64,000 nt of DNA from IMG/VR virus record IMGVR_UViG_3300021399_000154, positions 5,547 through 69,546 of that record. One strand, given 5' to 3'. Source of the DNA: a virus. Taxonomy: Duplodnaviria; Caudoviricetes. Positions within the stretch are counted from its first letter, which is position 1. Each line of letters begins with the position of its first letter. This document shows, in pieces, positions 3,502 through 59,333 of the stretch. The notes below the pieces were generated by a model. The model was given only the letters and a program-made list of their open reading frames with translations. It was not told where the DNA came from and did not search any database. The translations under genes and the position numbers were made by a program.

Positions 3502-4830
3502 ATGAAACGAAACTACTCATTAGATTATTCTATATAGCGCGACATAGATCGTGTCGCCGCTGTAACTGATATATTAGATAAATTAGAAAAAAATCCTTCT
3601 CCCGCTTAGCTAGACCAAATGGGTTCATACATCCTATACGGTAAAGATGAAAATGGTTTAAACGCAGCGAAGCGTGGCGAAATTATGACAAATAATACAA
3701 GGTACCAAAATTATAGAAAGAAAGAAGATAAGAATTTATCCCTAGATGAGATATTAGAGAATCCGCTAGCGGACGAACAATCGTTAAAAAATATCACAGA
3801 AAAGCGCACATATACCGCACCAAAACCAACCATTGCGCGGCCCCGTTACGACCGTGCTGGCAACCTAATTGACGCCGGCGATAGCGATGTGCCCGGCATG
3901 ACAGAACTTTGGTAGTCCATTGACCGCCTTGAAAAAGTTATTGCGACCTACAAAGGCCAACTAGCGGCAGACGAAGATACTCCTCAACTTGCTAGCGATT
4001 ATCGCCTCTACCAATTAAAGCATTGGTTAATTGACCTGCGGCGTCATCAATACTATTTGAAAGATGCCTACAAACCAACTCTCCATTTCGCCTCTATCGC
4101 GCCGCCTCACGCGCAATTCATAGATTGGTCACAAGATTGCGCCTATTGGATTACGAAGGAAGAATGGGAACATAAGATACAGACTTCTTTACTGCGCCAT
4201 TTTTCCACCAATCTTAAAGACTATGAGACAAAGGAAGTAGAGGGGGAGTTACTTATAAAGTGGGTGGTGCGGCGGCACACATTCGATTGGTAGAACTATA
4301 AGCATGTCGCGGCCCTAATTAATAATTATGATTTATTATATGACACATTCCGGACTCGTATAGAAACATACGGGCGTACCTTTATATTTGATTTTGAGCG
4401 CTATCGCTAGCTTGCTAATCTTACAGAAGTTCAAGACTACCTATTAACAAAAAAAATTCAGCATGTACCCTATGATGAGATTTTGCGCGATCTGCGGCAA
4501 AACTATGATTTAGTATATAATTAGAATCATTTAAGTGTTATTTTCGCGCAAGCTATTCCAAAAGCTTTCGCGCTCGCGGCTAAAAAACAACGTCTTATAG
4601 TAGATACCCCAGCAGACCAATGGAAGCAATGCTTCCGTTGCGGTAAAAAATTTCCAAGGCATCCTGTATTTTTTGGATACAATGCCGGCAGAAGAGATGG
4701 GTTTGCTTCTAACTGTAAAGAATGTGAGCGGCTAAGGCGAATTTCTAAAGGAGGGCAAACATTATATGATAGACGAAGAAAAGATAACTTCGCGCAAATG
4801 TCTGCGGTGCAAGCAAACAAAAACACTTGA
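3502..4830 (+). CDS. Conserved phage protein (442 aa) with putative HTH and C-terminal Cys4 zinc finger; 6 in-frame TAG
   Basis: One frame ATG 3502 to TGA 4830 with TAG at 3535, 3607, 3913, 4291, 4408 and 4522; CFRC...CKEC. Confidence 0.8.
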
Positions 4831-5704
4831 TAATTTTGCGCGCACACCTTCTAAATTTTTCCCTAACCATCGCTCTTTAATTTGTACGAGTTGTTTAGAA
4901 GTAATGGTGCCGCAGGATAATTTAGGAGAAGTTGATAGACTTTGCCGCTACCTAGATGTGCCATTTGATTTAAATAAATGGACTAGCTTATATGAGATAC
5001 ATAAAGATCATACATTAACGGCTTATTTTAATTTGTTATTAGATGACCATTATCAAGCTCTACAGTGGACAGATGAAAATAAGCGTTGGCACTTAGCACA
5101 GCAAGAACAAACAATTGATGATTAGGTTGAGGCTTTAAGTGCGGCTAAATGGCGGCAATTAAAGCAAGATTGGTCCTCTTCTTATACCAAATAGGAGTTA
5201 CTTTGGCTCGACAATTATTATAATCAAATTGTTAGTACTCAAAATGTCTCAACTCCTATTCTTCAGAATTATGCGCGTGATTTATGTGAAATTGAGTTGC
5301 GCATTAAAAAAGGTTTGCGCTCAGATGTAGATGTAAAAAAAGATATGGACGCGCGCGACAATATTATTAAGATAGCTAAATTTGAAGCCTCTAATGCGAA
5401 ATCTGCGGCGGACTTTTAGTCAGTGGGTGAATTAATGGTCTATTATGGCAAAAAGGGATGGCATCCTAACTGGCATACTGAACCGCAAGACTCAATTGAT
5501 TTTATGATGGAAAATATTCAAAACTACTTGCAGCGGCTAGTACGAAATGAGGGAAATTTTGCAGAGCAAGTTGAAGATAAAAAAGCACGTTATAATATGA
5601 CGGAGCGCTTAGAAGAAATTGAGAACGAAGCGCTTGAAGACGACGGAAATGATAATATTGAATACGAAGGGGGAGATGAATTAGAGGAGGAATTGGATGA
5701 ATGA
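4766..5704 (+). CDS. Putative terminase small subunit (312 aa), TAG read-through
   Basis: N-terminal CLRC...CTSC zinc finger, acidic tail, directly upstream of the large terminase; joins fragments 4766 and 5423. Confidence 0.55.
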
Positions 5705-8700
5705 GGTAATATTAAAAAATGGGATTCCTATTTAGAAAGGAAGTGTATTGACTAAACAATTTTTAGATAGGAATCAAGAATTATTTACTAAATATCTAAA
5801 TTTTTGGATACTATATCCTGATGCCTATTTAGACGCAATCCAAGACTCCTAGGATGCAAAGCATTTTCATCTCTTACCTTATCAGCGCATTGCATTGCGC
5901 GCGAGTATGCGATACCGTTATCATTTTTGGACTGCTACTCGTGCAACTTCTAAATCTTTTACTGCCTATTTAAGTTCGGTCTGCCGTGCAGTTCTATTAC
6001 CTGGATCTAATATTATGATTGCTTCGGATGTAAAAGGTACGGTTATAAAAATTGCCGAAGCAAAATTTGAAGAAATTTTTCGCCATTGGCCTCTATTACG
6101 AAAAGAACTTGCTACACGCGAAGATGACGGAAAGACAGGTATAAAATCAAGTAACAATTATTATGAGCTACGCTTTAAAAATGGCAGTATGATTACTGTA
6201 GTTTCTAAAGATACTTCACGTGGTCTACGTGCAACTGCGGCAATATTAGAGGAAGCTGCGACAATTGAAGAAGAACCTTATAATGAAGTGCTATTACCGC
6301 AAATGAATGTAAAGCGCAGAGAAGTAGATGGGACTATCAATGTAGAATAGCCTAGTTCTCCACAAACTTTTATTACAACCGCGCGTGAACGAACAGTATA
6401 TATGTATAGCAAACTTATATAGATTACCGTTAATGCGGTTTTACGACCAAAAGAATATTTTTCTTGGGGTTAACTTATAGCCCCGTTAGCCAGTGATGGT
6501 TAAGCAATAAACATCTTAAAAGCTGGAAAGTCTTAAAATCAATTATACTTTTCTTATTTGTTCTCCAAGATAAGCAAAGTTACGAAAGTAGAAATAAATA
6601 ATTGAGTGACGCATGGAGTAATCCTAAACGTTGGAAATAGATAATCAGCACCAATTATAATAGGAGGATAATTATATGCCTAAAAAATTAACAAAAGAAG
6701 ATGTAACAGAACGCATTCAAAATAAATGGCCTTAGTGGCATTTTCAAGTTTTAACTTATATAAATGCTATGACCCCTTGTAAAATTAAATGCTTATAGTG
6801 CGGGTTAATTAAAGAATATAAACAATTATATCATTTATTAACGAAATCTTGTCCTTGTGAATGTAATTCTAATTCTTCACAATTTAAATCTAAACAACAA
6901 ATTAAAGAATTAAAATAGTTTTTTGAAAATAATAAATAGTTTGAACTTATTGAATGGACAGTAATGAATGATAAAAAGCATAAGCCCGCAGTAAATATCT
7001 ATCATACAAAGTGCGGAAGAAATTTTATTCGTAGAACTACTACATTCTATCAAAATCGTATTTGTCCATATTGTGACGGCAATGCTATGCCAGATACACT
7101 TGAAATAAGCAAAAGATGCAAAGAAAAAGGATATACATTATTAACCTAGTATAAAAGTTTACAAGATAAAGTTTTAATACGACATGACAAGTGTGGATTC
7201 ATATGGAGTATTAAACCTTATAGATTTTATCACGAATTAGACGGTGATTGCCCTAATTGTAATAAAACAATTTCTAAGGGAGAAAGACGTATTATGTAGT
7301 ATTTGGAATAGCATAACATAAAATTTTCACGAGAACATAGTTTCTCATGGCAAAGTCATAAATCATATAGATATGATTATTTTATTCCGGAATATAATTT
7401 AATTATAGAATATCATGGCATTCAACATTATGAAGAAACAAACTTCTTACATTCTTCTTTATAGATAAATCAATAGCATGATGCTATTAAACAAAGATAG
7501 GCAATAATTAATGGATATAACTATTTAGTTATACCTTATAGTCATTATACTAAAATTAATGACATATTAAATAATTGGTTCAACGACTATCCGAAAGGAG
7601 TAAATAACAAGCTAATGGTTATTGAAAGAGATGTTATCTTTAATAAAAGATAAAAATATAGTCTAATCTCTATAGAAATATAGAGCCGCGAAGGGGTTAA
7701 AGAGTTGCGTCTTTAATTAAATAAAAATGATGAGTTACGAAGTACCTTTACACTATGGTCTATTAGATAAAGCTACATTATTAGACCAACGATATTCTTC
7801 TACTATTAGTGAAGAGTCCTTCAGTAGATAGGAGTTGAGTATTTGGACTGGGAATAATAAAGAAGCTTGGCTAGATTCTAAGACTTTAAATCGCAGAAGA
7901 AAATTATTAAAATGTGAGCGAAAAGCACAAGAGAATCCTACTAACGCTAATACTCAATATATGATTGGGGTAGATATTGGTAGATATAATGCTAATACGG
8001 CGGTAATGATAGGAAAAATTTTTCCTACACAGAATGGCTTTAAAAAACATATTGTTTATACTGAAGTTATTCATGGCGCGAATTATATAACTTAGCAAGC
8101 TCCCCGATTAAAAAAATTAATTCAATTATATCATCCTAAAGAAATTGTCATTGACGGGAATGGACCTGGTATTGGCTTATTAGATGCGATGGTATTGCCT
8201 TCTGTAGATTTAAAAACAGGAGAGCAATTTCCTGCCTATTATGTTTTTAATAATGACCATCATTTACCTCCGTAGATGACGAATCCATCAGAAGAGCCAA
8301 AACCTGAATACAACGCTATCATTTATGATATGAAAGCGGGCGCGGCTAATGATGATGTTATCCATTCTAACTTTTTCGCGCAAATCAATAGCGGAGCAGT
8401 TTCACTTTTAGCACACGAAAGAATTGTGAAAGACAAGTTGCTTGCGACAAAAAAGGGACAGAAGATGACATTATATGATAGGAGAGTATTTTTACTTCCC
8501 TATGAAATGACTTCTAGGTTGATTGATGAATTAAATAATTTAAAGCTAAAACCCACCGGATAGAAAAATCAATTTAAAGTTGATAGAATTTCTCGTTCAA
8601 TTGAAAAAGACCGTTTTAGCGCCTTATAGTACCTTCTTTATCGCGTGAAGTACTACGAAGATAAAGCGACTTATCGTAAGAAGAAGAAAAATTTTAGTTA

Positions 8701-8758
8701 GTATATATTCTTTAGTCCTAAAAAAATAGGGGGTGGTAACATTGGGAAAAGAAAATGA
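5697..8758 (+). CDS. terL: Terminase large subunit, join(5697..6470,7730..8758), ~600 aa
   Basis: ATRATSKS (Walker A-like), ILEEAA (Walker B), nuclease motifs IGVDIG and KDRFSA; spliced junction FSWG|MSYEVP; several in-frame TAG. Confidence 0.9.
6471..7729 (+). ncRNA. Group I intron in terL
   Basis: Exon ends in U, pairing with IGS GCCCC; P ~6518-6530, Q ATAATCAGCA 6641, R GGTTCAACGACTA 7577, S AAATATAGTCTA 7654; terminal G at 7729; splicing restores the frame. Confidence 0.9.
6676..7653 (+). CDS. Intron-encoded endonuclease (325 aa): Cys zinc-ribbon repeats plus PD-(D/E)xK/Vsr-like domain; 10 TAG
   Basis: GGAGG RBS; CxxC repeats; SKGE...YDYF...IIEYHGIQHY motif; ends TAA 7653, overlapping intron core elements. 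Confidence 0.8.
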
Positions 8759-10286
8759 AAAACGAGATTTTAAACAATTCCGAATTGATATTGAACGCAA
8801 TCGCACCCCTATAAATGGCCGCCGAGCTTATTATGGTAGATATGGAGGATATGTTAATGACCCTGTTGCGGAAGATTTTACTTTATAGGAAATCTTACGC
8901 ATTATTCGCTCTGGCGATTTAGCATCTCTAAGATAGCTATCTAGGTATTATTATCGTGTAAATGGTAATTATCGAAATAATATTGATTTTCTCGCGCATT
9001 TACCTTTATATGATAGTGTGGTGGTTCCAGTATTTCAAGAAGGTAAAGGTTCTAAAACTCAAATCTTAAAGGCTTTCTATACCGCGTGTGATTTTATAGA
9101 TAAGTTAGATTTACCTAATACTCTAGCGCATGTAACCACGGAATGGTTAATTACCGGTATTTATTACGGCATACTACGCACCGTAAATGATAAAGTTACT
9201 TTACAAGACTTGCCATTAGAGTATTGTCGTACAAGATTTAAAGATTTTAATAATTTAAATATTTTAGAATTTAACTTAGCATATTTTTTCACGATTAAAG
9301 ACGAAAAACAAAGAGAAGAAGTTATACGCACTTTTCCACCAATAGTACAAAAAGCGTGGAGAAAAACGCAAGGTAAAGGAATTGATAATTGGGTAGCAAT
9401 TACATCAGAATATGGTGGAGTTTGCTTTTGTTTTGCGCATGATCAAACGCCACTCCTGGTAGCTAGCATTCCTGAATTAAAGAAATTAGACAACGCAGTT
9501 GGCCGCGAAGAAAAACGAGATGAGAATGAACTTTATAAACTATTAATACAAAAAATGCCTATTGGTAGTAATGGAGAATTAGTATTCCAGTTAGATGAAG
9601 TCGCAGATATTCACGCATCTGTAGCTAATATGCTACAAGATGTAGATACTGTAGATGTTTTAACTACTTTTGGCGATACTAATTTAGAAAGTTTACAAGA
9701 AAGCACCTCAGCGAGTCAGTCTTCTGACCGTATTGAAAAATATAAGAAAAATGCTTGGGATGCTCTAGGGCGTGGAGAAATTTTGTTTAGCGCGACAAAT
9801 AGTTCTTCACTTGCGTATAGTATTAAAAAAGATGAGACTCTTATGTCGGCATATTTAAATATTTATGAAAGTTGGATTAAATTCTTAATTAATGATCGTT
9901 TTTCTCGTAAAAATTTAACATTTGATTTTTAGATTCTTCCATTGACTGTATTTAATCGGCAAGATTTACAACAGAACTACTTCCGTGGCGCGCAATACGG
10001 ATATTCTAAAATGTTTGCCGGCGTAGCAATGGGAATTAAGCAAATGGACCAACTTAGCTTAATGAATTTTGAAAATGAATTCTTAGAAATGTCCACAAAG
10101 ATGATTCCTTTACAATCTTCTTATACGACTTCAGGTAATGTGATTGCTAACGAAGAAAAAACTACTACCAAACAAACAACTACAGTTACTGGTGGTGCGA
10201 ATTTAGATAATACAGGGGGTCGTCCAGAACTTCCTGATGAACAAAAATCTGAAAAAACTCAAGCTAATATTTAGTCTATGGGTTAA
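8742..10286 (+). CDS. Portal protein (514 aa); 4 TAG
   Basis: Follows terL; TTG start with GGGGGTGG RBS; TAG at 8886, 8934, 9930 and 10272. Confidence 0.8.
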
Positions 10287-10297
10287 GGAGAATAACT

Positions 10298-11521
10298 ATG
10301 GAAAAAGCAATTCCTATTTATTTTGATAATGTTTTAATTGCTTCTCCATTACAGCAAGTTTCTGAAACGAACCCTAATTTGGGGCGGCTAAAAGTCGGCG
10401 TATTTACTAAATATGGTAATCGAAATGGATCATATATTACTGATGACGTTGCTGAGAAACTAATCGAAAGCGCAACTAAAGGAGATACTCCTGTAATTGG
10501 TTTTTTTGATCCTTAGACTAAGAGTTGGGCAAGTCATACTGGCCCAACCTTAGCGAGCGCCTATGGCTATGTAGAAAATTTTGAGGGGTGGCAACCATTA
10601 GTTGATACTGATGGCGAAACTCGTGACTATGCTGTCTTTACTGTAGTGCTTTTTACTAAGTATTTTGAAGAAGCAAATTTAATTATTGGACAAAATCAGT
10701 CTATGGAATTAGATATTAATTCTATTACTGGTGATTGGGCGGATATTAATGGTACAGAATATTATGTCTATACTACTGCCGCAATCCAAGGATTATGTGT
10801 TATTGGGGCACATGAGCCTTGTTTCTCAGTGTCTTCTTTCTTCTCTAAAGAAGATTAGAACTATCCTACCCAATATGATAAGTTTTCTTCACTTTTAGCT
10901 GCGGCTAAAGCGCAAGTTGAAGAAGCTGATAAAAATAAAGAGGGAGGAGAACAACCCATGAATGAATTTGAAAATGAACAAGAAGTTGTTGAAGAGCAAG
11001 TTCAAACCGAAGTTGTTGAAGAAACCCCCGTTGAACCTGAAGTAGAAACTACTCCAGAAGAACCAGAAGTGGATCATTTCGCGGAATTACAACAACAATT
11101 TGAGGCTCTACAGGCTTCTTATAATGAACTAAATCAACAATATCAAGACGCTCAGAATCGTATTGCTGAGCTTGAAACATTTCAGCAAACAGCTAATACA
11201 GATCTTGAAGCGCTTCGTCAGCAGAATACGGAATTACAAGCAACTATTACTTCTTATGAAACACAAGTAACTTCAATGAATGCTGCGCGGAAAAATGATC
11301 TCATTAATAAATATGAAAAAATGATTAATGAAGAAGAAGAAATTGAGCGTTTCCGTGCGGAAGTTGACAACTATTCTTATGACGAGCTTGAGAGCAAATT
11401 AGCTATTACCTTTGCTAATCAGCAAATGGCTCAAAAAGAAGTAGAAGAAGATAAAGTTCCTCTAATTGAGCCGCAAGAATCTCAATTTGCTCTATTAATG
11501 AAAAAATATAGGAAGAATTAA
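10298..11521 (+). CDS. Prohead protease-scaffold protein (407 aa); 2 TAG; probable nested scaffold from ATG 10958
   Basis: Between portal and capsid genes; acidic coiled-coil C-half; internal GGAGGAG RBS before 10958. Confidence 0.7.
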
Positions 11522-11534
11522 GGAGGAATAACTT

Positions 11535-12146
11535 ATGAGTATGAAACGTTTCCCTCTAGAACAATATGCTACTCTAGAGTTAAATCAAGTGGCGTTCCCA
11601 AAGACTGGTATGGTCGTTTCTCAAACTCCGCTAGGTGCAAAGTTTGTAGAAGGCGGGAGCGGCAATTATGGTGTATGTGAGAATGGTATGTGGGTTGTAG
11701 CTGATAAGTCCAAGGGTTATCTAGATGCCCCCGCTGCTGCTACTGACACTCCTATCGGTATTGTTTATACCGCTGAAAAAGAATATGATATTATGCACTA
11801 TGGTCTAAAGACTTTTGGTCGTAAGGTTGCTGGCGATTATCCTCGTGTTGGCATTCTTGGTTTAGGTGATACCGTAACCACCAATTGCTTACAGTATGAT
11901 AATAGCGAAGATGGCTTTAAGGCTAGCGGCTCTGGTGACACTGCAAAGACCGAGGAAGAGAATCTTTATGCAACTCTCGAAGCTTGGGCCACTACCCCTG
12001 TATATGTTAAGCCTGTTGCCGGTTCTCCTGTTCCACAGCTAACTAAGACCAAGCCTGAATCTGGCACTTATGGTAAAGTCACTAAATTCTATACCGTACC
12101 TAACGGCGAAAAGGGCGTTAAGTATGAAATTGTTTCCTTAGGTTAA
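11535..12146 (+). CDS. Capsid-associated structural/decoration protein (203 aa), TAG-free
   Basis: AAGGAGG RBS; directly upstream of the major capsid gene; codon bias of a highly expressed gene. Confidence 0.6.
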   Translation: MSMKRFPLEQYATLELNQVAFPKTGMVVSQTPLGAKFVEGGSGNYGVCENGMWVVADKSKGYLDAPAAATDTPIGIVYTAEKEYDIMHYGLKTFGRKVAGDYPRVGILGLGDTVTTNCLQYDNSEDGFKASGSGDTAKTEEENLYATLEAWATTPVYVKPVAGSPVPQLTKTKPESGTYGKVTKFYTVPNGEKGVKYEIVSLG

Positions 12147-12161
12147 TGGGAGGTGCGAACT

Positions 12162-13232: not shown

Positions 13233-13243
13233 TTTATATAATA

Positions 13244-13273
13244 GGGGCGGGTTTACGCCCGCCCCGGTTTTTT
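13244..13273 (+). terminator. Intrinsic terminator after the major capsid gene
   Basis: GGGGCGGG-TTTACG-CCCGCCCC-GG followed by a T-run. Confidence 0.85.
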
Positions 13274-13292
13274 GCGTAAAAGGAGGAAATAT

Positions 13293-13745
13293 ATGAGTAA
13301 TTTATCAATTAAAAATATTAGTTCTGCAAATATAGTATTAACTGCACCAAATATTCGATTCCGCCGTGAACTGTCCCCAGGACGGACACTACCTTTAACA
13401 GCGGAATAGTATGAAGAGCTTTCATTTGATAGCGGCTTTTCTGCCTTATTAGACGGACATTATTTACAAATGTTTGGATTAGATGAAGATAAGGAAGCCG
13501 TTACTGTTGATGGAGCAGATAAAGTCTATAGTGCAACTGATATTGACAAAATACTAGACACTTTAGATATTACTACTTTTGCTAAATTTTTACCTACGGC
13601 GGCGGATGCTGAAAAAGAAACTGTTGTAAAATTAGCAATTGAAAAAGGTATTACAAATGGTGGCTTTACCGCTCTCATTAAAAAATATTGTGGCGTTGAT
13701 GTGATTAGTGCGATTAACATGAAACATCAAGCCGAAGAGAATTAA
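13293..13745 (+). CDS. Head-associated hypothetical protein (150 aa); 1 TAG
   Basis: AGGAGG RBS; TAG at 13407. Confidence 0.75.
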
Positions 13746-14215: not shown

Positions 14216-14477
14216 AACCTTTAATGGTTATAAGCGCAAGATGAAAGGTCGATTATATGGCGTATTATGTGAAAAAGAAAAAAATGGTGAATGGGAAAAA
14301 TTTTTAGATTCTATTATTATTGAATTAGAAGGTTTAGGCGCGACATCTATTAACTATTGGTCTTTAATTGGAAAATTAAATTCGCTTAAGCATTTAAATT
14401 ATGATTATTTCCGTAAGACCATATTTTAGTGTATGAATTTAGTAGGTGATTTAAATGAGCCAGACGAATTATCTTAA
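14205..14477 (+). CDS. Conserved neck-region protein (90 aa); 1 TAG
   Basis: FRKTIF*CMNL; ends TAA 14477. Confidence 0.7.
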
Positions 14478-15669: not shown

Positions 15670-15680
15670 GAGGTGAGAAT

Positions 15681-16944: not shown

Positions 16945-16962
16945 TAAATGGAGGTAACTTTT

Positions 16963-17874: not shown

Positions 17875-17876
17875 TA

Positions 17877-48220: not shown

Positions 48221-48235
48221 AGGAGGTGACAATAC

Positions 48236-50902
48236 ATGAGTGATGAAAGTTCTTTTAATTATTTGACTAAGCGTGCGTTAACACTAGGTTCAGGTTGTCA
48301 ACTTATGTTTATTCGTAGGACTGAAGAAGTTAATGGTACAGAAACTTCAAAAATTATTCCAGTATTAATGTTAACTGGTGTTAACAGGTTCGGTAGCAAA
48401 GAAAATAAAGATAGCGAAGAAAATAAAGATCTTGACGGAATACGTATTACTACAGATATTGCGCAAGGGTGTGTAGGTATTGTCACTACTGAATTAAATA
48501 ATTAGAATAAATTAATTACAGAGGTTAAAAATGCAATTAAGGTTAATCCCTCTGATGGATAGAATTCTGACTGGATTACTACGCTTAAGCATGATAAAGA
48601 TGCAGTCGTATACCCGCGTATTTTTATTAAATCGCTACAAGTGAAAACTAATTCAGATGCGTTAGTATTAAAATATGAAGATGAAGAAAATTTAGATTAG
48701 AATCAAATTATTAATTATGTTCCATTAAAAGAGTATGAAGAATATTCGGTATTAACTCGAAGTCTGGAGTAGTAGTATGTCTTAACATTAAAACCTGAAG
48801 TGGTGGTTAAGAAAGGTGCATACGGTACAATAGATGGTTCTATTGCTACGCGCCAAGCGACTCTTAATTATACTATTTCTAATGCAGATACATCAATTTA
48901 TCTTGACGCAATTGAAGTATTAAAAGAGAATGCGATGCCTAAAGTAGAATATGATGTTAAACCAAATGTATTCGCAACTAAATATTGTGAAACATTATAT
49001 AATAAATTAGGCAACATTATCCGCATTAATGATAATGAATTAAAGTTTAAAAATATTAGAGGATATATTTCAGGTTTAACTTTAGACTTAGATAATCCTG
49101 ATGAGGATACAATTGAAGTAAAAAATTATAAAACAAAATTTGAAGACCTATTTTCTACTATTACCGCGCAAACTGAAGCTATGAAAAAAAATAACGGACT
49201 AATGTAGTCCGTTGCCGCCGCATTTACTTCTTCTGGTGAATTATCAGAGACAGTATTACAATCTTCTATTAGAAAAGTAGATTTAGATTATGCATTTAAT
49301 AATGGTAAATTAACCATTGATGAGCACAATGGTATTTGGGGTACTAGTGATACTGGAGTAGTTGCATTCCGAGGTGGCGGTATTTTTACCGCAACTGAAA
49401 AAAACACTTAGGGAAATTGGAAATGGAATACTGGTATTACTCCAGAAGGTATCAACGCAGATTTAATTACAACTGGCCAATTAGATACTAATTTAATTAA
49501 AATTTATTCAGGCGATAATGTACGTTTCCAAATGAATGGCGATGGCATTTTTGCTTATAAAAGTAAAACTACTTACATTGACAAACCTTCACAAGCTGAA
49601 AATGCCGACCTCAAACCAGATGGTGAAGAGACGGTTTCTGCACAAGAAAGTATTGATAATTTACAGTATGTACGTTTTTGTGATGAAGGGTTGATACTTG
49701 TCGCAAAAAAAGGTGCAAAAGTTTTAAATAATACCAAAAGCGGTTACATTACTGTATTAGAAGGCCAATATGTACCGGGAAATGAAATTAAACGTGTTGA
49801 AATTGGATGGAGAGGCTTAATTCTACGCAACTGGAAAAATGAAGATGTATTTTATGCAGATGCTGATACTGGTAATTTAACATTAACAGGTAGAATAATA
49901 GCTACTTCAGGTAAAATTGGAGCTTGGAATATTGATAATAATAAGATTTGGGCTGATAGTGCCGCGAATGATGAAACTTATACTACATTTGTAGCATTAA
50001 ATGCAGGTGGCACAAGTAGTGATGCACTAGTAAAAAGTGATGGTACAGCATATCTTGATAATAACAATAATGAATTACGAGTTTCTACTAAAGATTATGC
50101 ATTTTGGGCAGGTAGTCCAAATCCTGCCGAAGCAAAGTTTTCTATTAAAAAAGATGGAACGTTAAAAGCTACAGCTGGTCAAATTGGTGGATGGAATTTA
50201 TCTCCTGATTTATTATATAATATTGATAGCTTAATTTTAGCCCCAGGCGCGAAGGGAAAGGGAGAAACTGAAATACTGGTTCCTATACAAAGTGTAAATG
50301 AAAAGGGTGAATTAGAATGGGATGACAATGGAGACCCTGTATATTAGAAATACGAAAATGGTAAAATTAAATATGAAACAAAAAAAGTTTCTTATCAAGA
50401 TACTATTTTATGGGTACCATCAGAAGCTAAAAGAGCTGAGTATAAAGATGAGAAAAGGGAAAATAAATTACCTATTGTTGACACTCTAGGCGGTGCTGTT
50501 CTTACTATTTCTAAGGATGGTGATCTTACTGCTGCATCAGTTAACGGATGGAAACAAGCTTGGATGGCAGGAGATTCATATATCATACGAAGTGCTAGTT
50601 CTTCAGGTATGTCATTAAGAAATTTAAAAACAGGCGGGACAAAATGGGTTTCTTTTAATAACCTCAACGGTGCGACTGCCACCCTTCACGTTGAGGGAAA
50701 AGGTGTAACTAGTGGTGGCAATAAAGAAGGAAATTGGAGTAATAAGGGACTAGATTTATCGGTTACTGTTACTCTTAGCAACGGGCAACAAAAAAAATTA
50801 TCATTAGGATCCTATGCATTAAAAATTAGTTGTTCAAAAACATGGGCTTCTGCTAGTTTTGGTGGAAAGAGTGTAGGGTGCGGTGTTCCTAAAAGTAATT
50901 AA
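48236..50902 (+). CDS. Tail tip protein, C-part of the Tal-like family (888 aa)
   Basis: AAGGAGGTGA RBS; NYKTKFEDLFS..TA, GITPEGINADLITTGQLDT and repeated G.IGGW motifs. Confidence 0.75.
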
Positions 50903-50940: not shown

Positions 50941-51315
50941 TATTATCCAATCAATCTGTACCATTTCTTTTGGAGTCATTTCAATATCTTCAAAATCATC
51001 TAAATCTAATGTGACTGCATTTAATTCAATTTGTGTATCATTTAAAATAGCGATTTCTTTATTATAATCGGGAATATTATCCTTCATAATTTGTACATTC
51101 CCATCTACACTTACAATAATTTCACCATTTTCATCTTTTTCACAATATTTATTCAGTAGTTCTCTGCGCGCCTTATCATATAGCTCTAATTCATTAGAAA
51201 CTGCCTGAATAACTTTTCCAACTTTATAAGCTAGCTTTCCACGTAAGGGCTTATCACCTAATACTTTTAACGCTTCGGCACTATTAACTAAGTCAACTAA
51301 TTTAACTTCAATCAA
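50917..51315 (-). CDS. Conserved hypothetical protein (132 aa)
   Basis: Intact ORF with TTGA overlap to the resolvase gene. Confidence 0.75.
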   Translation of the reverse strand: MIEVKLVDLVNSAEALKVLGDKPLRGKLAYKVGKVIQAVSNELELYDKARRELLNKYCEKDENGEIIVSVDGNVQIMKDNIPDYNKEIAILNDTQIELNAVTLDLDDFEDIEMTPKEMVQIDWIIKKEETQE

Positions 51316-52055
51316 ATATCTTCACCCCAACTTGACTTATTACTTTTTAAGATACTACAAAAATATTTTCCAATACAAATTGCATCTGCTTCATCTTGTG
51401 TACAATCTTGTCCATACCATAACTTTACTTTATCTTGTGCTTGTTTCTTTTTGGTTTCTCTTCCAGTCCCATTACCAACATCACAATACTTCCGCCATTG
51501 TGTCGCATATACTAAATCATGGTCAATACTCGCTTCAAAAATTGCATCAAGTAGTACTCCTTGTAACCGCGCGAGCGCGCGATAAGTTTCAACTTGATAA
51601 TTATTTCCATTGCCGAAAGCTTGTAATTGTATCGCTTCTAAACCAATGAAATCTGGTTCCCATTCTTCCATTGCGGCGATAAGCCACTTCTTCATAGTAT
51701 TGATGCGGGCTTCGGTAGATAACTCTTTATCTACCTTATAAATCCCATAATATACTAAATCATTATTATCAAAAATAGCATATCCAGTGATATTAGTTGC
51801 TGCGTCTAATGCTAAAATACGAGTTGTGTCAATCTTCTTGATTGGCACCTTATTTTTTTTGATCTTATAAGGATCGCCAGCCAAACATTTTTCACATAAC
51901 ATATGTTTGCGCCAGTTACCATAACTTTGTAATTGTTTATGGCCTTTTGGGCACTACATTTCTAATTCTGTATTTAAATTTTTATAAGTGTCGCTAAGCA
52001 ACTTCCAGCCTTCTTGCTCTAAATGATTAGCGACACTATAAATATTAATAGGCAT
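51312..52055 (-). CDS. ruvC: RuvC-like Holliday junction resolvase with N-terminal zinc ribbon (247 aa); 1 TAG
   Basis: ILALDAAT, GLEAIQ and DEADAI motifs; N-terminal M*CPKGH...CEKC reached by TAG read-through from ATG 52055. Confidence 0.8.
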
Positions 52056-52873
52056 TATTTACCTGTACTGCCAAAGCCGCCAGATGACCTATCTGTTTCT
52101 TGTAGCTGGTCTACGACTTTAGCTTTAAAGTGATAATTAGGCATGACCATTAATTGCGCGATTCGGTCGCCCTTATTAATAGTATAATCAGAATCAGAAA
52201 GATTATCATATAGTACGCCAAGCGGGCCTAAATAACCGCTATCAATTATTCCTGCACTATTGCTTAGCCGCAGACCAGTCTTGGCGCCGATGCTAGAACG
52301 TGGGAAAATCATAGCCATCCATCCTTCTGGAAGTTGAATATGAACACCAGTTCTTACCATATTTGATAGTGAATGCGCGGGTAGTACCATAGTATCCGCC
52401 GCGTAAAGGTCAGCCGCGGCATCTGTCTTATGCGCGTATGTAGGTTCTTGTGCGCCTTCATCTAAAGTCATTGGCAAAATAATATGATAGTTATGATATT
52501 GATCACTAATCTCAGTAAATGCATTAATGATGGGATTAAAAATAGCATTTAATAGCCTACGCTGGTTATCACTTGGATTTAAATCATTAACCAAGGCTTG
52601 AATTTCTTGTTGAAAGTGTTGAATATAACTTACAACCTCTTCTTGCTTGATCCCTTGATCATCAAAATTGGCCTTTAATTGCTGTATAGTACCAGGTGTT
52701 AAAATATCGGCAATAACATTTTCAGTAGTAGTAATTAGAGAAACTGTCATTTCTTCTGTCAGCATCTCGTCATCCATTTCCATCACTTGATTAATAATAT
52801 CTTGAAAATTTTCAATTGATGGATTATCTGGTAAAATTTCATTTAATCGCGCGCGAATTTCTTCTTGTTCCAT
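52055..52873 (-). CDS. dut: Trimeric dUTPase with ~125-aa acidic N-terminal extension
   Basis: AAADL, PRSS, GIIDSGYLG, GDRIAQL and RSSGGFGSTG motifs. Confidence 0.92.
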   Translation of the reverse strand: MEQEEIRARLNEILPDNPSIENFQDIINQVMEMDDEMLTEEMTVSLITTTENVIADILTPGTIQQLKANFDDQGIKQEEVVSYIQHFQQEIQALVNDLNPSDNQRRLLNAIFNPIINAFTEISDQYHNYHIILPMTLDEGAQEPTYAHKTDAAADLYAADTMVLPAHSLSNMVRTGVHIQLPEGWMAMIFPRSSIGAKTGLRLSNSAGIIDSGYLGPLGVLYDNLSDSDYTINKGDRIAQLMVMPNYHFKAKVVDQLQETDRSSGGFGSTGK

Positions 52874-52884
52874 ATGTATTCTCC

Positions 52885-53091
52885 TTAGTCATTAAAAGTT
52901 CGTTCTATTGTAACGACTGTCCAGCTATCAACTATTTCTCCTTTCGACTTCTTTGTCTTTAGGACATAGCCGGACTTAGTTACTGTGTAATCTTGTGTAA
53001 GTTGACCATCTTTAGCTTCTTGAATCATGTTCATTGCTTCATCTTCAGTATCAACGCGATATACTTCAGTTGTTTTCAGTAGTACTTTCAT
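52885..53091 (-). CDS. Hypothetical protein (68 aa)
   Basis: MKVLLKTTEVYRVDTEDEA...; GGAG RBS. Confidence 0.7.
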   Translation of the reverse strand: MKVLLKTTEVYRVDTEDEAMNMIQEAKDGQLTQDYTVTKSGYVLKTKKSKGEIVDSWTVVTIERTFND

Positions 53092-53419
53092 TTTCTTCAA
53101 TCTCCTTTTGTTTCTTTTCATTTAGTTCTCGTAGACTTTTAATTAGTTCAATATAATTTAGTTTTTGTGCGGTTTCGGCAATTGTTTCCGCCTTACTTTT
53201 AATTCGGCGCTTATTCCTTTTTAGCCATGCTCTTCGTTGCGCGCGATTCATAGGTGGCATATTTTCTTGAATCTTTTTGCGCGTAAATTCTTTAATATTA
53301 TTTAATACGTCATCTGCGGTTTCCCCGCCAACGAGATTTGTTGCTTCTTCTTCTGATACGCCTTGCGCTTCTGCAAAACGCGCAAGCAATTGTTCCTTGC
53401 TTAAATTTTCTTCACTCAT
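53066..53419 (-). CDS. Hypothetical protein (117 aa)
   Basis: Intact ORF with ATGA coupling. Confidence 0.7.
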   Translation of the reverse strand: MSEENLSKEQLLARFAEAQGVSEEEATNLVGGETADDVLNNIKEFTRKKIQENMPPMNRAQRRAWLKRNKRRIKSKAETIAETAQKLNYIELIKSLRELNEKKQKEIEENESTTENN

Positions 53420-53709
53420 AATACTACCTCTAATACATTTTTAATTGTTTCGTATTCTTGTTTATTATTTAAACCAAACATTGTAAATAATTTATCATTA
53501 TGTGCGATAAGAGGAATTTCAATTTTACTTGTCATACTTTTAATAATATCATCTATTAATTCATAATAACTTGATGTTATTGATATAGTGTCTTGTTTTG
53601 TTTGGAATGTAATTTTACCAATTTTCCCAAGAATTACCATGTATTTATCATCATTTTTTACTAACGCTATAAGCCAATCTTTAATAAATTTTATTTCTTG
53701 AAACTCCAT
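53416..53709 (-). CDS. Hypothetical protein (97 aa)
   Basis: GGAGG RBS; intact ORF. Confidence 0.65.
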   Translation of the reverse strand: MEFQEIKFIKDWLIALVKNDDKYMVILGKIGKITFQTKQDTISITSSYYELIDDIIKSMTSKIEIPLIAHNDKLFTMFGLNNKQEYETIKNVLEVVL

Positions 53710-53711
53710 TT

Positions 53712-54662
53712 TTAGCCTCCTCCGCCTGCATTCTTATTAAATCCATATTCTTGGCTCTTAAAAAAATTAATATAATATTTTTCTAATTCATTAAGTTGTT
53801 CTTTTTCACAATAAATAATTGGCTCAATAGTCCAATTCCAAAAGCCTGTTTTCCATATCTAATGATGTACCGCTTGATCTGCGATTGTAGAGATTCCAAT
53901 ACTTGATTTTATATGGTCCGTAATACGTTTTTTGATATTAGTGCTTTTCCCAATATAACATTTACCATTATTGATAAAAGTTAATTTATAGATACCAGGT
54001 TTATCTTCTATGCCAGCGCGTTTAAATGTATCATCAATGTATGGTTTAACATATTCAGACCATACTAATTTATTAATTACATCAGGATGCTTTACTTGCT
54101 GTGAGACTTGCGTAATTAAAAAGTTTATATCTTCTTTATATTCATCGGGCACTTGTATTGTATAATACAATCGCTGTTGTTGTTCCATTTCTAATTGCTT
54201 TAAAGGTGTAATTAAACTATTATACTTCTACTACATGAATTGTAAATTAGTAGTTAATTCAGTTGTGCGCGCTTGACATTCAGCTTCTACCTGTTCTGCC
54301 GCGTCTGTAGCAACCTTTACTCGTTTTTCGCACTTTTCGATTTGTTGCTAACAATATATATCATAAGTATCGGCTAATTCACTTTTTCGTTTTTCTAAAT
54401 CTGCTTCTAATTGTTGTTCTCGTTGCGCTTTTAATTCTGAAAAATATGTATTTAAATCCTTATTCTTGAGAAGCATAACATCGTTATGCTACATTAAAGC
54501 TGTTTTTATATCTTTCTAAATATCAGATAATACTTGTTGTTTTCCATGAATCTCTGCATCTAAATTAAATAGTTCACTTTTATCTAAAATTTGCTGCTTT
54601 TGTAATTTTAAAATTAATATTATAATAACAATAATTAAAATCCCGCTAATACCCCAGCCCAC
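53712..54662 (-). CDS. Membrane-anchored coiled-coil GIY-YIG nuclease (316 aa); 6 TAG
   Basis: N-terminal TM helix ILIIVIIILIL, coiled coil, PGIYKL...CYIGKS...R, ELEKYYI...GFN. Confidence 0.75.
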
Positions 54663-54693
54663 TAATTTCACCTACCTATTTTCTTTATACCTT

Positions 54694-54722
54694 ATTATAT
54701 CATAGTTTTATAAAAAAGTCAA
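54694..54722 (-). promoter_or_regulatory. sigmaA promoter
   Basis: TTGACT-17-TATAAT with TG. Confidence 0.85.
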
Positions 54723-54725
54723 ATA

Positions 54726-54765
54726 AAAAGAAAAAAGGACGAGATGTATATTACATCTCGTCCTT
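54726..54765 (-). terminator. Intrinsic terminator over the FTR stop codon
   Basis: 14-bp perfect stem AAGGACGAGATGTA-TAT-TACATCTCGTCCTT plus T-run. Confidence 0.85.
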
Positions 54766-54948
54766 AATATATAAGCCGCAATGGCAGGTTTGTCCAACGG
54801 GTACTTGTTCACGCATTTCTTTACAAATGCATTTATAATCCTCATTTCCCTTACTATTTAAAACGCAAGGGCAATATCCGTCATTTTCACGCAGCCCCGC
54901 GCGAATAGCCGCGACTATTTCTTTATCTTCATTAATATGTATTTTCAT
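54751..54948 (-). CDS. Ferredoxin-thioredoxin reductase catalytic subunit-like (65 aa)
   Basis: GYCPC...CIC...CHCGLY. Confidence 0.8.
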   Translation of the reverse strand: MKIHINEDKEIVAAIRAGLRENDGYCPCVLNSKGNEDYKCICKEMREQVPVGQTCHCGLYIKDEM

Positions 54949-55430
54949 GATATTTTCTCCGCATATTGATTATTACTTGCTAAATTAACTCCTAGCGTTT
55001 CATCGTAATGTGGTTCATAACCAACTAAATAAGGTCCATATTTTATAATTATGTTTTTATATTGCTGTAATGTGGTTAAACAAGTCAATTCACTTCTTGC
55101 ATAGCCAGTATAAATAATAATAGGGTCATCACACTTTTTTTCTATACGAATAAATTTAATTAAATCCAATAATTCTTTTTCTGAATCAAATGGCTCTAAT
55201 CCTTGACAACAAAAACCTTTAGTAATAGGATTTTGTTGGTATAAACCCCATATTTCATTAAATGAAATTTCTATATCTGGCTCAATGGCAAGCGCACTAT
55301 TTTGGCATACTTGGCATTTATTTATTTTATCACACTTAAAAGTACAAAACGGAAATTCCAAAGTGAGGACAGGCTCTTTATAATTTACAAAATCACAATC
55401 AATAATTCCTTTAATTGTCATTTCTATCAC
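54945..55430 (-). CDS. nrdG: Anaerobic RNR activating protein (radical SAM)
   Basis: CTFKC...CQN cluster motif, GLEPF, IYTGY and IKYGPY; next to nrdD. Confidence 0.8.
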   Translation of the reverse strand: MIEMTIKGIIDCDFVNYKEPVLTLEFPFCTFKCDKINKCQVCQNSALAIEPDIEISFNEIWGLYQQNPITKGFCCQGLEPFDSEKELLDLIKFIRIEKKCDDPIIIYTGYARSELTCLTTLQQYKNIIIKYGPYLVGYEPHYDETLGVNLASNNQYAEKIS

Positions 55431-55659
55431 CTATATTATATTTACAATGTATCATAGAGCATTCGCCAGAGAAAGTATAAAAAAAACAATCATCACATTG
55501 CGAATGGAGTGGACACCATTCTGGTCTTTTAGTTTTATAATCATCACATTCCCAAGCTGCGCTGCAGAGTCGGCCATGACAGTAATGAAACTCTTCATCT
55601 AATAATGGACAAACAAAGCAATCAGAGGGCTTTTCAATATCAAATTGTATTTGTATCAT
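55411..55659 (-). CDS. Small Cys-rich hypothetical protein (82 aa)
   Basis: CFVCP...RPEWCPL...CDDC. Confidence 0.65.
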   Translation of the reverse strand: MIQIQFDIEKPSDCFVCPLLDEEFHYCHGRLCSAAWECDDYKTKRPEWCPLHSQCDDCFFYTFSGECSMIHCKYNIGDRNDN

Positions 55660-57795
55660 TTATATGCTCCCATTGACGCATCTTAAATTCTTGTTTTCTT
55701 TCTTTACTCCAAGTTTTTATAGGGGTGTAAACTTTTATACCCTCGGTTTCCCGATATTTATTAGGGGAATAGACTATACCATTATCTTTTTAGATATCCT
55801 TTGGTAGTCGTTGGGGCCACGGGTGCCTGCGGATTACCCAATTCTTTAAACTTTTACACTAAGGTGTTAAAGACTCTAAGGGCTTCCCCGCATATTCAGG
55901 ATTTCTTATTTTAAATCGTGTTATATTATTTCTAATATATTGGGCAATACACCATTTTACCCTACGATTCTTGTATATTCAGTTACAACCTCACCACCGC
56001 AAACTGGACATTTAGTACCGTAAAAAGCGTGGTTGCGTGCACAAGCTTGAATTTTGGTATTAAATGCAAAATACGTGAGTCCTTGATCCGCAATATAATT
56101 TACTGCTTCCCAAGCCTTTTCAAAAGTATCAAATGGTGCATCAATATTTAAATGGGCAATTGAGCCACCATTACAATAACTATCAAATAGAGATGCAATA
56201 CGAATGCGTTCCGCGATGGTTGTTTTAATTCCTAAAGGAACAAATTGATTAGCATAAAGTGGAAGATCTTTAATTACTTTTGTAGGATAAAGTAATTCAT
56301 CTGCTTTTTGCATTTTTGCTGCTGCTTGCTCCCCTGGAATTTGTTCAATAGATACTTTATAATTTTTATCTTTAATGAAATCTGTTTTACATTTGGTAAT
56401 AACGTTAAATATTTTTTCACCAAACGCATCGGCTTCTTTAGAATAATAAGTATTCCCTAATTTATCTTGCTTAGTATAACCAAAATATTTTATTGTTTCA
56501 TAAATTCCAATAACGCCTATTGTATTATATTGTGTGTTAATATCAATTAATCCATCACAGTAATTAGGTAATAAGCCCTTTTCATGATTGCGAATAATTA
56601 TATTTCGTACTACATCAAGAACTTTTAAATCTAATTCAACTAAATGTTTTAATCGCGTTAAATACTCTTCTTCAGAATTAGTTTCATAAGCAATACGTGC
56701 GAGATTAATTGTTGAAACTTTAACGGAACCTACTCGAAGAGCAGTACCGCCAATACTAGAAAAAAATCCTAAATCATCAATATTGGATTTTAGGCGGCAA
56801 CAGTTACTTAAGCTGGTAACACTATCACTCGTAAATAGATTAGAATCACTCCATTTTCTATTATGTTCAATTGCCCACTTCGCAAATTCTTCATCTTCAA
56901 AATGATGATTCTTATAAATCATTGAAATTGAACTTACGGGAAAAGTAAACATATTTTTAGAACGAATGTCGCTCATTACCTCAAGAAAAACTTTTTGAAA
57001 TTGTTTAATATTATCTAATTCATCAATCATAAATGCTCCATCTGGAAATTGCGCTGCGCCAAAAAGAGCTTCTAAATAAGGGGTATCAAAAAAATTAACG
57101 TTAGTAAATGCAGATTGAATTGAATCTCGTACAGCCGGTTGATTGACTGCATAGATAAAACGTTGAATGTTTTGCTTGGCATAAGTCTCAGGGTCTTTTG
57201 TGTAATAATTTGCTGCGACATCGCGACTCCAAAAATAATACATATAAGGAATTAAGTCTGGTAGTCCACATGCGCCAGAAGTAAGATTGCTATTATAGCT
57301 AATAAACTCTTTCACAAAATCAATAAAAGTAGTTAAATGTTGTGCCGGCTCATAATTAAAATCTGTTAAAAAGAAAAGACCTTCTTCGGCTAAACGTTTA
57401 AGAGTATAGGCATAACAGTATGGCTTAAAAGTGCTAGTATCAGCGTCATGTAAATATAAACCTCGGTTCCACTATAATTCTAGCCATTCATTAGCAGTTT
57501 TAAAACCATATTGCTTATTAAGTTCATAATAAATTTTATTATATGCTAACAATTTCCGATGCGGTTTCGGCATTTCATTCATTAATGTTCGCATATCTTT
57601 ATGCCCAACATTTGCGTTTCCATCTACAGATGCATCAGCGACAGTATCTTTATCAATAAAATTATCAATAAAATCAGTATAAGATAATTGATTATCGCCA
57701 AAACCATTTAAATAAGCAAATTCTTCTCCATATTTTTCGCTCATTCTATTATAAGCGGTTGTAAAATTTTTATTAAGTCGTACTTGTATATTCAT
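55640..57795 (-). CDS. nrdD: Class III anaerobic ribonucleotide reductase, complement(join(55640..55731,55959..57795)), ~642 aa; 1 TAG; no ATP cone
   Basis: YLHD, SNCCRL finger loop, VSTINL, CxxxH and CPVC zinc motif, spliced glycyl-radical motif TRIVG|FYTP; TAG at 57472-57474. Confidence 0.92.
55732..55958 (-). ncRNA. ORF-less group I intron in nrdD (227 nt)
   Basis: Exon GGGU pairs with IGS GCCC; P 55884-96, Q 55827-35, R 55805-13, S 55770-78; terminal G at 55732. Confidence 0.9.
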
Positions 57796-57800
57796 AATCA

Positions 57801-58025
57801 TCACTCCACATAATTATTAATCAATTTCGTCATTTCTCCTGGACTTGTAATAAAATCAACTTTTTCTTCATGATTAATTTTTAGTACGGGAGCATGATCA
57901 ATATGTAAATATTCTGCAATTTCTTCTAAGGGTTTTTCCTCATAAGCTATATTTTTTTGTTCTAGCTTAGTTTTAATCATATGACAAATGCCGCAAGATG
58001 GCAAAGTATATAAAGTAAATTGCAT
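57801..58025 (-). CDS. nrdH: NrdH/glutaredoxin-like redoxin (74 aa)
   Basis: LYTLPSCGIC...APVL; AGGAGG RBS; directly upstream of nrdD. Confidence 0.75.
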   Translation of the reverse strand: MQFTLYTLPSCGICHMIKTKLEQKNIAYEEKPLEEIAEYLHIDHAPVLKINHEEKVDFITSPGEMTKLINNYVE

Positions 58026-58026
58026 A

Positions 58027-58251
58027 TTAATTTGCCTCCTTTTGTTGTGAACAATGCTTTTTCCCGCAATACGGGCAAGTATCATCAACCCACGCAAAAT
58101 TATATTTTGTATCAAAATGAGGACAACGCGCCTGATTAATACGAATCATCGCTCGAATCTTATTTATAGTATCTTTTTGTTCCATTGTCGCAAGCGCTTG
58201 TTTCAAGATGCGGTCAAGCCGTTCCTTTTCAGCAATAATATCATCAATCAT
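58027..58251 (-). CDS. Hypothetical zinc-ribbon protein (74 aa)
   Basis: CPH...CPYCG; ATGA coupling. Confidence 0.7.
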   Translation of the reverse strand: MIDDIIAEKERLDRILKQALATMEQKDTINKIRAMIRINQARCPHFDTKYNFAWVDDTCPYCGKKHCSQQKEAN

Positions 58252-59333
58252 ATTCTCCAATAGCCTCCTTGTTTTAATGAGTTAAAAGTTTGATTAAATA
58301 GTTCTTTAGTTTCTGGGTAAAATTTAAACAATCGCTGTTTTTCTTCCTATAGAAAAGTTGCTTGTTCTTTTTGTAAATGTTTTGTTGTTCTATCGTCCAA
58401 TGTTCTTGTCAATTTACTATCAGTATTAGCCCAATTTTCCATTTCTAACTCTAATTTTTGTAACGGATTTTTATATCCAATTTTAGGGTAATCATATTTT
58501 ATTTTTAATTCAATCCCTCTGCTCCAGAAAGAATAGAGCAAATTAATTTTATAAATAAAGTCTTTATAATATTGTGTTGTCGTTGGGAATGAACCACCAA
58601 AGAAAATTGCTACTGAAGTAGTTTTATTAATATCTGCAAGAAACATTTTTTTATATGTTTTTAACATATAATAAACTTCAGATAAAGGAATGTTTAAATC
58701 CAATATAACCATATTAGTGCGTGCAATTTTAGGGAATGAACGTACGGCAGAAAATTCTGTTAAGGTTTTACAAATAATTGGGTGGACACAATAAATTGAA
58801 GAAGGTTTTCGTTCTGATATTTTTGTAATAATTTCCTACCAGTTATTATGTAGAAAGTTACGATCATAAATTAATATCCTTTTTCTAATATTAATAGGAG
58901 GAATAGGTAATTGTTGATCGTTCAAAAAAATACGATAATAAGAATCATCTAAAACATGCCCTATTACTTCTGTTTTGATTCCATTATTATATTTTTCTTT
59001 TAAAAATTCTTTATAAATAGCTGGTCGCGCGATAGTATAATCTATAATGCTATTCTCAAATGGTTTGTAAACACCATCTGTAAATGCGGTGCCGCCAAAT
59101 ATTACATTATTGGCGCGCAAAAACGCAGGTGGAATCTGTGGTTCTCCTGCGGTTTCACTAAAGAAATATATTTTGTCATAACTAGATAATTCAGTATCAT
59201 TTAAATCAAGGAGGCGGCAGAATTTATTTTCTTCTAATTTATAATATGTAGCCAATTTCATAATTTCTAAATTAGGAATTATGATGCGCGTAGATGTTGA
59301 AATTTGGGCATCATAATCAAGTAGACCAATCAT
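58248..59333 (-). CDS. Conserved protein resembling a degenerate radical-SAM/B12-binding-domain family (361 aa); 2 TAG
   Basis: IGLLDYD...PNLEIMKLATYYK...FGGTAF; no CxxxCxxC; TAG at 58836 and 58347. Confidence 0.6.

Follow-up and report, generated by a model that had tools for sequence, protein, structure and literature searches.

Does TAG end genes in this phage and, if it does not, which amino acid does it encode? The window, by which we mean the whole 64-kb stretch analysed, comprises bases 5547-69546 of one 69,546-bp virus contig (IMG/VR record IMGVR_UViG_3300021399_000154) with a G+C content of 34%. It belongs to a tailed phage of the ruminant gut with a genome of roughly 165-185 kb, and is 64 kb of a 69.5-kb fragment. 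A sequence-only reading had proposed that TAG is a sense codon here, within the frame of code 15, where it usually means glutamine (Gln). We found that TAG is indeed a sense codon and that the genes are not broken. As for the amino acid, we favour glutamate (Glu), and put a probability of roughly 0.7 on UAG being read as Glu by a phage-borne transfer RNA (tRNA) with a CUA anticodon, tRNA(CUA), that would be charged by the host and escape amidation by GatCAB.

TAG is a sense codon

Coding density was measured over the whole contig with greedy, non-overlapping open reading frames (ORFs) of at least 60 amino acids (aa), reading each stop codon in turn as sense. ORFs cover 61.7% of the contig under the standard code (code 11) and 93.4% with TAG as sense, against 66.9% with TGA and 81.8% with TAA. 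A gain of more than 10 points, which marks a stop-recoded phage, was counted for TAG and not for the other stops, the figure for TAA being made up of short ORFs. The set of ORFs changes from 103 with a mean of 138 aa under code 11 to 54 with a mean of 400 aa when TAG is sense. Reading TAG as sense, and only this, yields stop-to-stop ORFs of 5522, 1721, 1603 and 890 aa, the longest control ORFs being 1347 aa (TGA sense) and 1318 aa (TAA sense). TAA ends most genes, and reading it as sense gives no long ORFs; the pattern of NCBI tables 30 and 31, where TAA is also Glu, was not found.

All 253 interruptions inside genes are TAG, and none is TAA or TGA. TAG-TAG doublets, which had also been noticed from the sequence, are found at codons 140-141 of 20611-21465 and codons 448-449 of 18825-20579. 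The related claim that every gene ends at TAA or TGA is true by construction, and two small ORFs to the left of the window could end at TAG (see below).

Furthermore, family profiles and relatives align through the TAGs of the portal, terminase, tape measure and NrdD genes instead of stopping there. The portal aligns end to end with its PHROG profile, and residues 4-615 of NrdD align to the NrdD of Thermotoga maritima with an E-value of 1e-134. Coverage (62% to 93%), homology across TAGs and the bias between early and late genes described below all bear out the proposal that TAG is sense.

If the TAGs were real stops, the genes would have to be decayed, misassembled or made by occasional read-through. 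We give this practically no chance. Nothing speaks for it beyond the formal presence of stop codons, whereas the interruptions are never TAA or TGA, homology carries on past them, doublets exist, a relative has a tRNA(CUA), and the pattern recurs across independent assemblies and runs. ORF coverage, the columns of the relatives and the NrdD alignment effectively exclude a pseudogene or an artefact.

TAG behaves as glutamate in alignments

To read the meaning of TAG from homologous positions, late proteins with TAG translated as X were aligned to those of 13 relatives in which code 11 gives densely coding loci. In these comparisons TAG behaves as Glu. Of the 541 residues that the relatives have opposite TAG, 291 are E, 88 D and 39 Q (54%, 16% and 7%), over a background of 7.9% for E. 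Reference profiles from the same alignments give 68% E and 11% D for GAG, and 57% Q for CAG/CAA, so that the TAG profile is GAG-like. With substitution frequencies estimated from these alignments, the 59 TAG columns give column-averaged log-likelihoods of -121.6 (Glu), -169.6 (Asp) and -174.5 (Gln). Glu predominates in 26 of the 48 well-covered TAG columns and Gln in 3, a balance with a probability of 3e-16 if TAG were Gln; for Glu, the numbers are a little low (P 0.03) but compatible.

The same procedure was applied to TAG-recoded sister contigs. It returned Gln for 14 of them, and Glu only for the closest relative, G001 (contig L002), and, with few columns, for L012. The method therefore discriminates between the two amino acids, and the Glu result is specific to a lineage. 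Compared codon by codon with G001, TAG stands opposite GAA/GAG 65 times, opposite TAG 20 times and opposite CAA/CAG 12 times.

Individual genes give a similar picture. The TAG of the HNH gene that is x in the motif HRLVA-x-AF stands where 109 of 120 database homologs have E, and the NrdD column with a TAG is E in G001, G002 and G003. In the divergent tail genes, E is the commonest residue opposite TAG (E 33, D 19, K 19, Q 9).

The code 15 frame of the sequence-only reading therefore did not hold, since the homologous columns are Glu and not Gln. Alignment of TAG with Gln in standard-code homologs, as expected under code 15, was not seen here, and was seen by the same measure in sister lineages. 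Given Glu at the TAG columns, code 15 would mistranslate about 250 residues. A public copy of the HNH protein of this phage (P0001, window 20611-21465) has Q at every TAG position; the database translation therefore used code 15, which is probably wrong here.

Proposed decoding by a suppressor tRNA

The window, and indeed the full 69.5-kb contig, is free of tRNA genes. It is thus true, as had been remarked, that the window holds no suppressor tRNA. This is uninformative, because the contig is a fragment and the tRNA(CUA) of the closest relative lies beyond the equivalent of the contig end. The RecJ-like gene is cut by the right end of the contig and matches only the final third of its family profile, which identifies the contig as a fragment. 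The contig is colinear with G001:94.9-162 kb. G001 has a 75-nt tRNA(CUA) at 63.8 kb (L066:1846-1920), about 31 kb past the contig-end equivalent, and the relatives carry 13 to 30 tRNAs each.

The G001 tRNA(CUA) has the D-arm TTCT/GGAA and the variable loop GAAC, with U11-A24, U13-G22, A46 and a 4-nt variable loop lacking residue 47. These D-arm and variable-loop features are major determinants of tRNA-Glu outside the anticodon (PMC9976931). Measured against the identity set of the glutamyl-tRNA synthetase (GluRS) of Escherichia coli, the D-arm and variable loop agree with tRNA-Glu; the anticodon and acceptor part does not, with only U35 and A37 retained. Its acceptor end consists of G1-U72, G2-C71 and A73. 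Bacterial GatCAB requires U1-A72, by which it picks Glu-tRNA-Gln for amidation (PMC2811023), and the G1-U72 of G001 is not such a pair. By comparison, the tRNA(CUA) of G003, in which TAG is Gln, has the Gln-type U1-A72 and G73. Whole-sequence identity to other tRNAs did not classify the isotype of the tRNA(CUA), and a BLAST search against E. coli genomes gave no match.

Genes for a release factor, GluRS or glutaminyl-tRNA synthetase (GlnRS) were not found in five near-complete relatives. In the case of the synthetases, charging therefore falls to host enzymes.

From this we infer the following scheme for the window phage, including the presence of the same tRNA, the charging enzyme, the avoidance of GatCAB and the role in regulation. 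A tRNA with a CUA anticodon would be encoded outside the contig, as in the closest relative, and would retain the identity elements of tRNA-Glu except in the anticodon. The host GluRS would load Glu on it and, as the U1-A72 pair needed by bacterial GatCAB is lacking, this Glu would stay un-amidated. UAG would be readable only after the tRNA is made, which would tie the synthesis of late proteins to the phage's own programme.

Two further observations concern the tRNAs of relatives. The tRNA(CUA) of G003 (L069:2806-2896) is 91 nt long, with a long extra arm or insertion. The G002 genome (L003, L067), of 179 kb, rated 100% complete and with TAG as Gln, has 17-19 tRNAs and no detectable tRNA(CUA).

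Distribution of TAG along the genome

TAG is concentrated in the late block (3502-50902), with 243 in-frame TAGs in 15,536 codons, or 19% of the sum of GAA, GAG and TAG. The replication block has 10 in 4,169 codons, with the GIY-YIG endonuclease gene accounting for 6, and TAG makes up 3% of its Glu-type codons. This is a 6-fold late enrichment (Fisher P 9e-16). The polymerase gene (59330-63253) has no TAG in 1307 codons, 102 of which are Glu codons (P 4e-10). The recoded codon is thus over-represented in late genes, whereas early and replication genes avoid it.

TAG is likewise missing (P 1e-6) from three virion genes whose products are probably abundant (11535-12146, 12153-13232 and 16948-17874). 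The codon seems to be avoided both in early proteins and in the most abundant ones.

The gene that opens the late block (3502-4830) resembles a PHROG “sigma factor” family (E 5e-16) and contains six TAGs. Should it encode a late transcription factor, the suppressor tRNA would be needed to make that factor itself.

To the left, a block covering genome positions 1-5546 (L001) and window positions 1-3300 contains small ORFs on the plus strand that favour CAG over CAA and have short repeats, present many times in G001, at their flanks. Two of these ORFs (genome 889-1131 and 4291-4692) have a possible end at TAG, with TAA 4-14 codons downstream. Such ends may fit TAG acting as a stop early in infection.

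Points against glutamate and alternative readings

Several points weigh against Glu decoded by a tRNA of the phage. Columns with an E majority are 54% for TAG and 68% for GAA/GAG (P 0.03), with Asp in excess. Three TAG columns are unanimously Gln in the relatives, and Thermotoga NrdD has Gln at the TAG column of NrdD. Alignment cannot separate Glu from a Glu/Gln mixture or a modified residue. The contig of the window phage carries no tRNA(CUA), and decoding by one of its own is a prediction. In the tRNA of G001, the G1-U72 pair matches neither the G1-C72 of the Glu type nor the U1-A72 of the Gln type, and a CUA anticodon necessarily alters C36 and U34, two anticodon bases that are strong determinants for GluRS in E. 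coli. Its D-arm motif also occurs in 3 of 14 tRNA-Gln, therefore the tRNA alone shows only an identity of the Glu/Gln family. Lastly, charging by the GluRS of the host is presumed.

We considered it very improbable that TAG is Gln, as in code 15, with the Glu columns representing tolerated Glu-to-Gln replacements. The published recoded TAG phages that we found are all assigned Gln, and the unanimous Gln columns and the Thermotoga residue just mentioned would agree with it. The balance of 26 mostly Glu to 3 mostly Gln columns is against it, as are the many TAGs at columns with Glu in 13 of 13 relatives, the clear Gln signal that the same method gives in Gln-using sister lineages, and the exchange of TAG with GAA/GAG, not CAA/CAG, in the nearest relative. 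Less improbable, if still doubtful, is that UAG is read as a mixture, with the Glu-tRNA(CUA) partly amidated by GatCAB and the lineage intermediate between two meanings. In its favour, G1-U72 is weak as a first pair and its acceptance by GatCAB is uncertain, the purity of Glu at TAG columns is a little below that at GAA/GAG columns, and the TAGs of G003 (L013), mostly at Gln columns, are also found where Glu is invariant, at four sites shared with the window phage. A mixture should leave an excess of Gln-majority columns, and there is none (3 of 48 for TAG, 16 of 338 for GAA/GAG); moreover, it would be costly at the many invariant Glu positions that hold a TAG. Pyrrolysine was prompted only by the label “Pyl” that ARAGORN puts on CUA tRNAs; it had no other support and was rejected.

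The main rival, also unlikely but to a lesser degree than a mixture, is that the host bacterium itself reads UAG as Glu and the phage follows it, with the phage tRNA only topping up the supply. The code-25 phages of Absconditabacteria do follow their host's code. Contigs of metagenome-assembled genomes (MAGs) labelled uncultured Clostridia carry a Glu-type tRNA(CUA); on one of 254 kb this gene is part of a tRNA array, and a tRNA-Glu(UUC) that shares its D-arm lies about 140 nt away. The absence of release factor and synthetase genes from the phage relatives would also suit a host code. Such a code would leave unexplained why the polymerase and replication genes strongly avoid TAG and why late genes are enriched 6-fold in it, however, and the closest relative has its own tRNA(CUA). 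Family members with the standard code, with TAG as Gln and with TAG as Glu share the same samples. Nor was a CRISPR or prophage link to the Clostridia MAGs that bear tRNA(CUA) found: a comparison of window bases 1-20000 with 151 genomes of the order of the MAG gave one 32-nt match, outside any array, and a portal search in five MAGs with a Glu-type tRNA(CUA) gave only a prophage-like match of 24% identity. Chromosomal-looking tRNA(CUA) genes with a tRNA-Glu-type D-arm were seen at L094:5765-5838 and L091:7798-7873, both labelled uncultured Clostridia, the former in an array of 19 tRNAs near a tRNA-Glu(UUC) with the same D-arm.

Having set these alternatives beside it, we retain Glu, decoded by a phage tRNA, as the preferred meaning of UAG.

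The phage family and changes in the meaning of TAG

The window phage is a distant kin of large siphoviruses of Bacillota. Among GenBank phages, the nearest to its polymerase are SPbeta-type Bacillus and Enterococcus phages (below 40% identity), and the nearest to its portal are Enterococcus, phAss-1 and Lactococcus 949-type phages (below 31%). PHROG matches include the portal, virion proteins, the tape measure, HNH and GIY-YIG endonucleases, NrdD, an NrdG-like protein and dUTPase, along with a RuvC-like resolvase, a DnaE-type polymerase and a RecJ-like exonuclease. In IMG/VR we found 33 relatives with a portal identity of 64-86%, five of them near-complete with 163-184 kb. Near-identical DNA was found in animal, bovine and sheep gut runs. 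Contigs from RNA runs are 90-97% like parts of virion genes, a measure of likeness only and not of expression level or decoding.

In the portal tree, the window phage and G001 are grouped with support of 100/99. They lie inside a recoded clade of six, together with L012 (Glu-like) and the G003 group (Gln), and the rest of the tree consists of a second group with TAG as Gln and a standard-code group. Members of all three kinds co-occur in the same metagenome samples. The sister lineages G002 and G003 (TAG as Gln) and G004 and G005 (standard code) have portals 64-70% identical to that of the window and resemble it in gene order, giant tape measures and the samples where they are found. They differ from it in that TAG is Gln in the G002 and G003 types, and is not sense in the G004 and G005 types.

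Four TAG sites at invariant Glu are common to the G003 lineage (L013) and the window phage, where about 0.7 would be expected (P 0.006). These shared sites hint at a change of meaning, or an ambiguous period, within the clade. It is a tentative possibility that UAG switched between Gln and Glu within one phage clade, through the first acceptor pair of the suppressor tRNA governing amidation by GatCAB. If true, this would offer a natural and testable example of how a codon goes through a phase of ambiguity.

Comparison with known recoded systems

As code 15 phages, we took the crAss-like, Lak, Garnet, Topaz, Agate and phAss-1 phages for comparison (10.1101/2021.08.26.457843; PMC9523058; PMC10607447). 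The window phage resembles them in having TAG mainly in late and structural genes, with early and replication genes nearly free of it, a pattern already known for recoded phages (10.1101/2021.08.26.457843). Low coding density under code 11, relatives with a phage-borne tRNA(CUA), the lack of a dedicated synthetase and the gut habitat are also common to both, and phAss-1 is a distant relative (portal 27% identical). Unlike in these phages, TAG is read here as Glu, not Gln, as far as the alignments tell, and no gene for release factor 2 (RF2) was found in the relatives.

Outside phages, a stop read as Glu is likewise found in NCBI table 30 (peritrich ciliates), where UAR is Glu. UAR is also Glu in NCBI table 31 (Blastocrithidia). 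In these cellular systems TAA is reassigned as well and the change is genome-wide, whereas the present case is a virus in which TAG alone is recoded, mainly in late genes, and TAA is the main stop.

According to Borges et al. (10.1101/2021.08.26.457843), phages with a code unlike their host's show only TAG-to-Gln and TGA-to-Trp. Papers on Lak phages, Pharokka-gv, jumbo phages and phAss-1 take TAG to be Gln, by assumption or inference. Phrase searches of the literature found no paper on TAG or UAG to glutamate in phages. Since the published recoded TAG phages that we found are assigned Gln, TAG as Glu would be a new amino acid for a recoded stop in a phage.

This matters because stop recoding in phages is treated as two cases, TAG as Gln and TGA as Trp, and gene callers and databases apply code 15 automatically. 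In this phage, about 250 positions, many of which are invariant glutamates, would thereby receive a wrong residue. A lineage with TAG as Glu beside sisters with TAG as Gln and with the standard code suggests that few tRNA identity elements, acting through the GluRS and GatCAB of the host, set the meaning of a captured stop. The family would thus be a compact test system for changes of codon meaning. In practical terms, it points to natural amber suppressor tRNAs that insert Glu.

Gene content and split genes

The features of the window are listed in Table 1.

Table 1. Genes and other features of the window, with the number of in-frame TAGs.
Feature	Position	Strand	Remarks
Late (virion) gene block	3502..50902	+	243 TAG
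First late gene, PHROG “sigma factor”-like, 442 aa	3502..4830	+	6 TAG: 5 at mostly-Glu columns, 1 mostly Asp
Terminase large subunit, exon 1	5619..6470	+	5 TAG; homology to relatives starts near residue 20-27
Terminase insertion, 1259 nt	6471..7729	+	HNH endonuclease ORF 6676-7653, 10 TAG
Terminase large subunit, exon 2	7730..8758	+	6 TAG, three at columns Glu in 13/13 relatives
Portal protein, 517 aa	8733..10286	+	4 TAG, two at columns Glu in 13/13 relatives
Two TAG-free virion genes: 11535-12146 and capsid-like 12153-13232	11535..13232	+	
TAG-free virion structural protein, PHROG 2729, probably major tail protein	16948..17874	+	
Tape measure, exon 1	18825..20564	+	580 codons, 11 TAG
Group I intron in tape measure gene	20565..21750	+	HNH/NUMOD homing endonuclease ORF 20611-21465, 6 TAG
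Tape measure, exon 2	21751..38232	+	5493 codons, 96 TAG
Tail protein, 1721 aa	38240..43405	+	35 TAG; weak Sipho_tail/Dit-type match, residues 81-152
Two large tail genes: 1598 aa (28 TAG) and 888 aa (8 TAG)	43424..50902	+	conserved in code-11 G004, G005
Replication and nucleotide-metabolism block	51312..63999	-	10 TAG
RuvC-like gene	51312-52055	-	1 TAG
GIY-YIG endonuclease gene	53712-54671	-	6 TAG
dUTPase; NrdG-like gene	within 51312..63999	-	0 TAG each
NrdD	55957-57804	-	1 TAG, residue 111
ORF	58248-59333	-	2 TAG
DnaE-type polymerase	59330-63253	-	0 TAG in 1307 codons
RecJ-like gene, cut by contig end	63310-63999	-	

In terms of gene structure, read-through of TAG had been credited with fusing ORF fragments into single-frame genes. 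This stands for the portal, NrdD and the 1721-aa gene. The terminase and tape measure genes also need the removal of an insert, besides read-through of TAG. The 1721-aa gene had been labelled Dit; its single frame with TAG as sense was confirmed, and the evidence for the label itself is a sub-threshold Sipho_tail match.

The terminase is split at 6470/7730 and is thus not a single-frame gene as had been proposed, although the TAGs in both exons are read through. The tape measure is split at 20564/21751. In relatives these genes are contiguous, the tape measure in G005 and the terminase exons in code-11 relatives. Furthermore, an otherwise similar strain in DNA run X2 lacks both inserts, with the joints exactly at codon boundaries; for the tape measure, the joint in this run was placed at 20563/21751. 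For the tape measure, the insert has an Rfam Intron_gpI (RF00028) core at 21423-21704, scoring 70.7 bits against a gathering score of 50. The core, the split gene and the intron-less allele, together with the homing endonuclease ORF, identify it as a group I intron. The terminase insertion has the split gene and the insert-less allele and scores below the Rfam gathering threshold; it is probably a group I intron too. A sequence search of the terminase pieces against PDB gave no usable match.

Lastly, the spliced tape measure has about 6073 aa (580 + 5493) and 107 TAGs. The earlier size of about 6,070 aa was thus right, and the gene consists of two exons split by a group I intron instead of one frame fused by read-through. 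Three segments of exon 2 (1897-2527, 2539-3048 and 3052-4016) match one and the same stretch of G004, therefore internal duplications lengthened the tape measure. A protein of this size would imply a very long tail.

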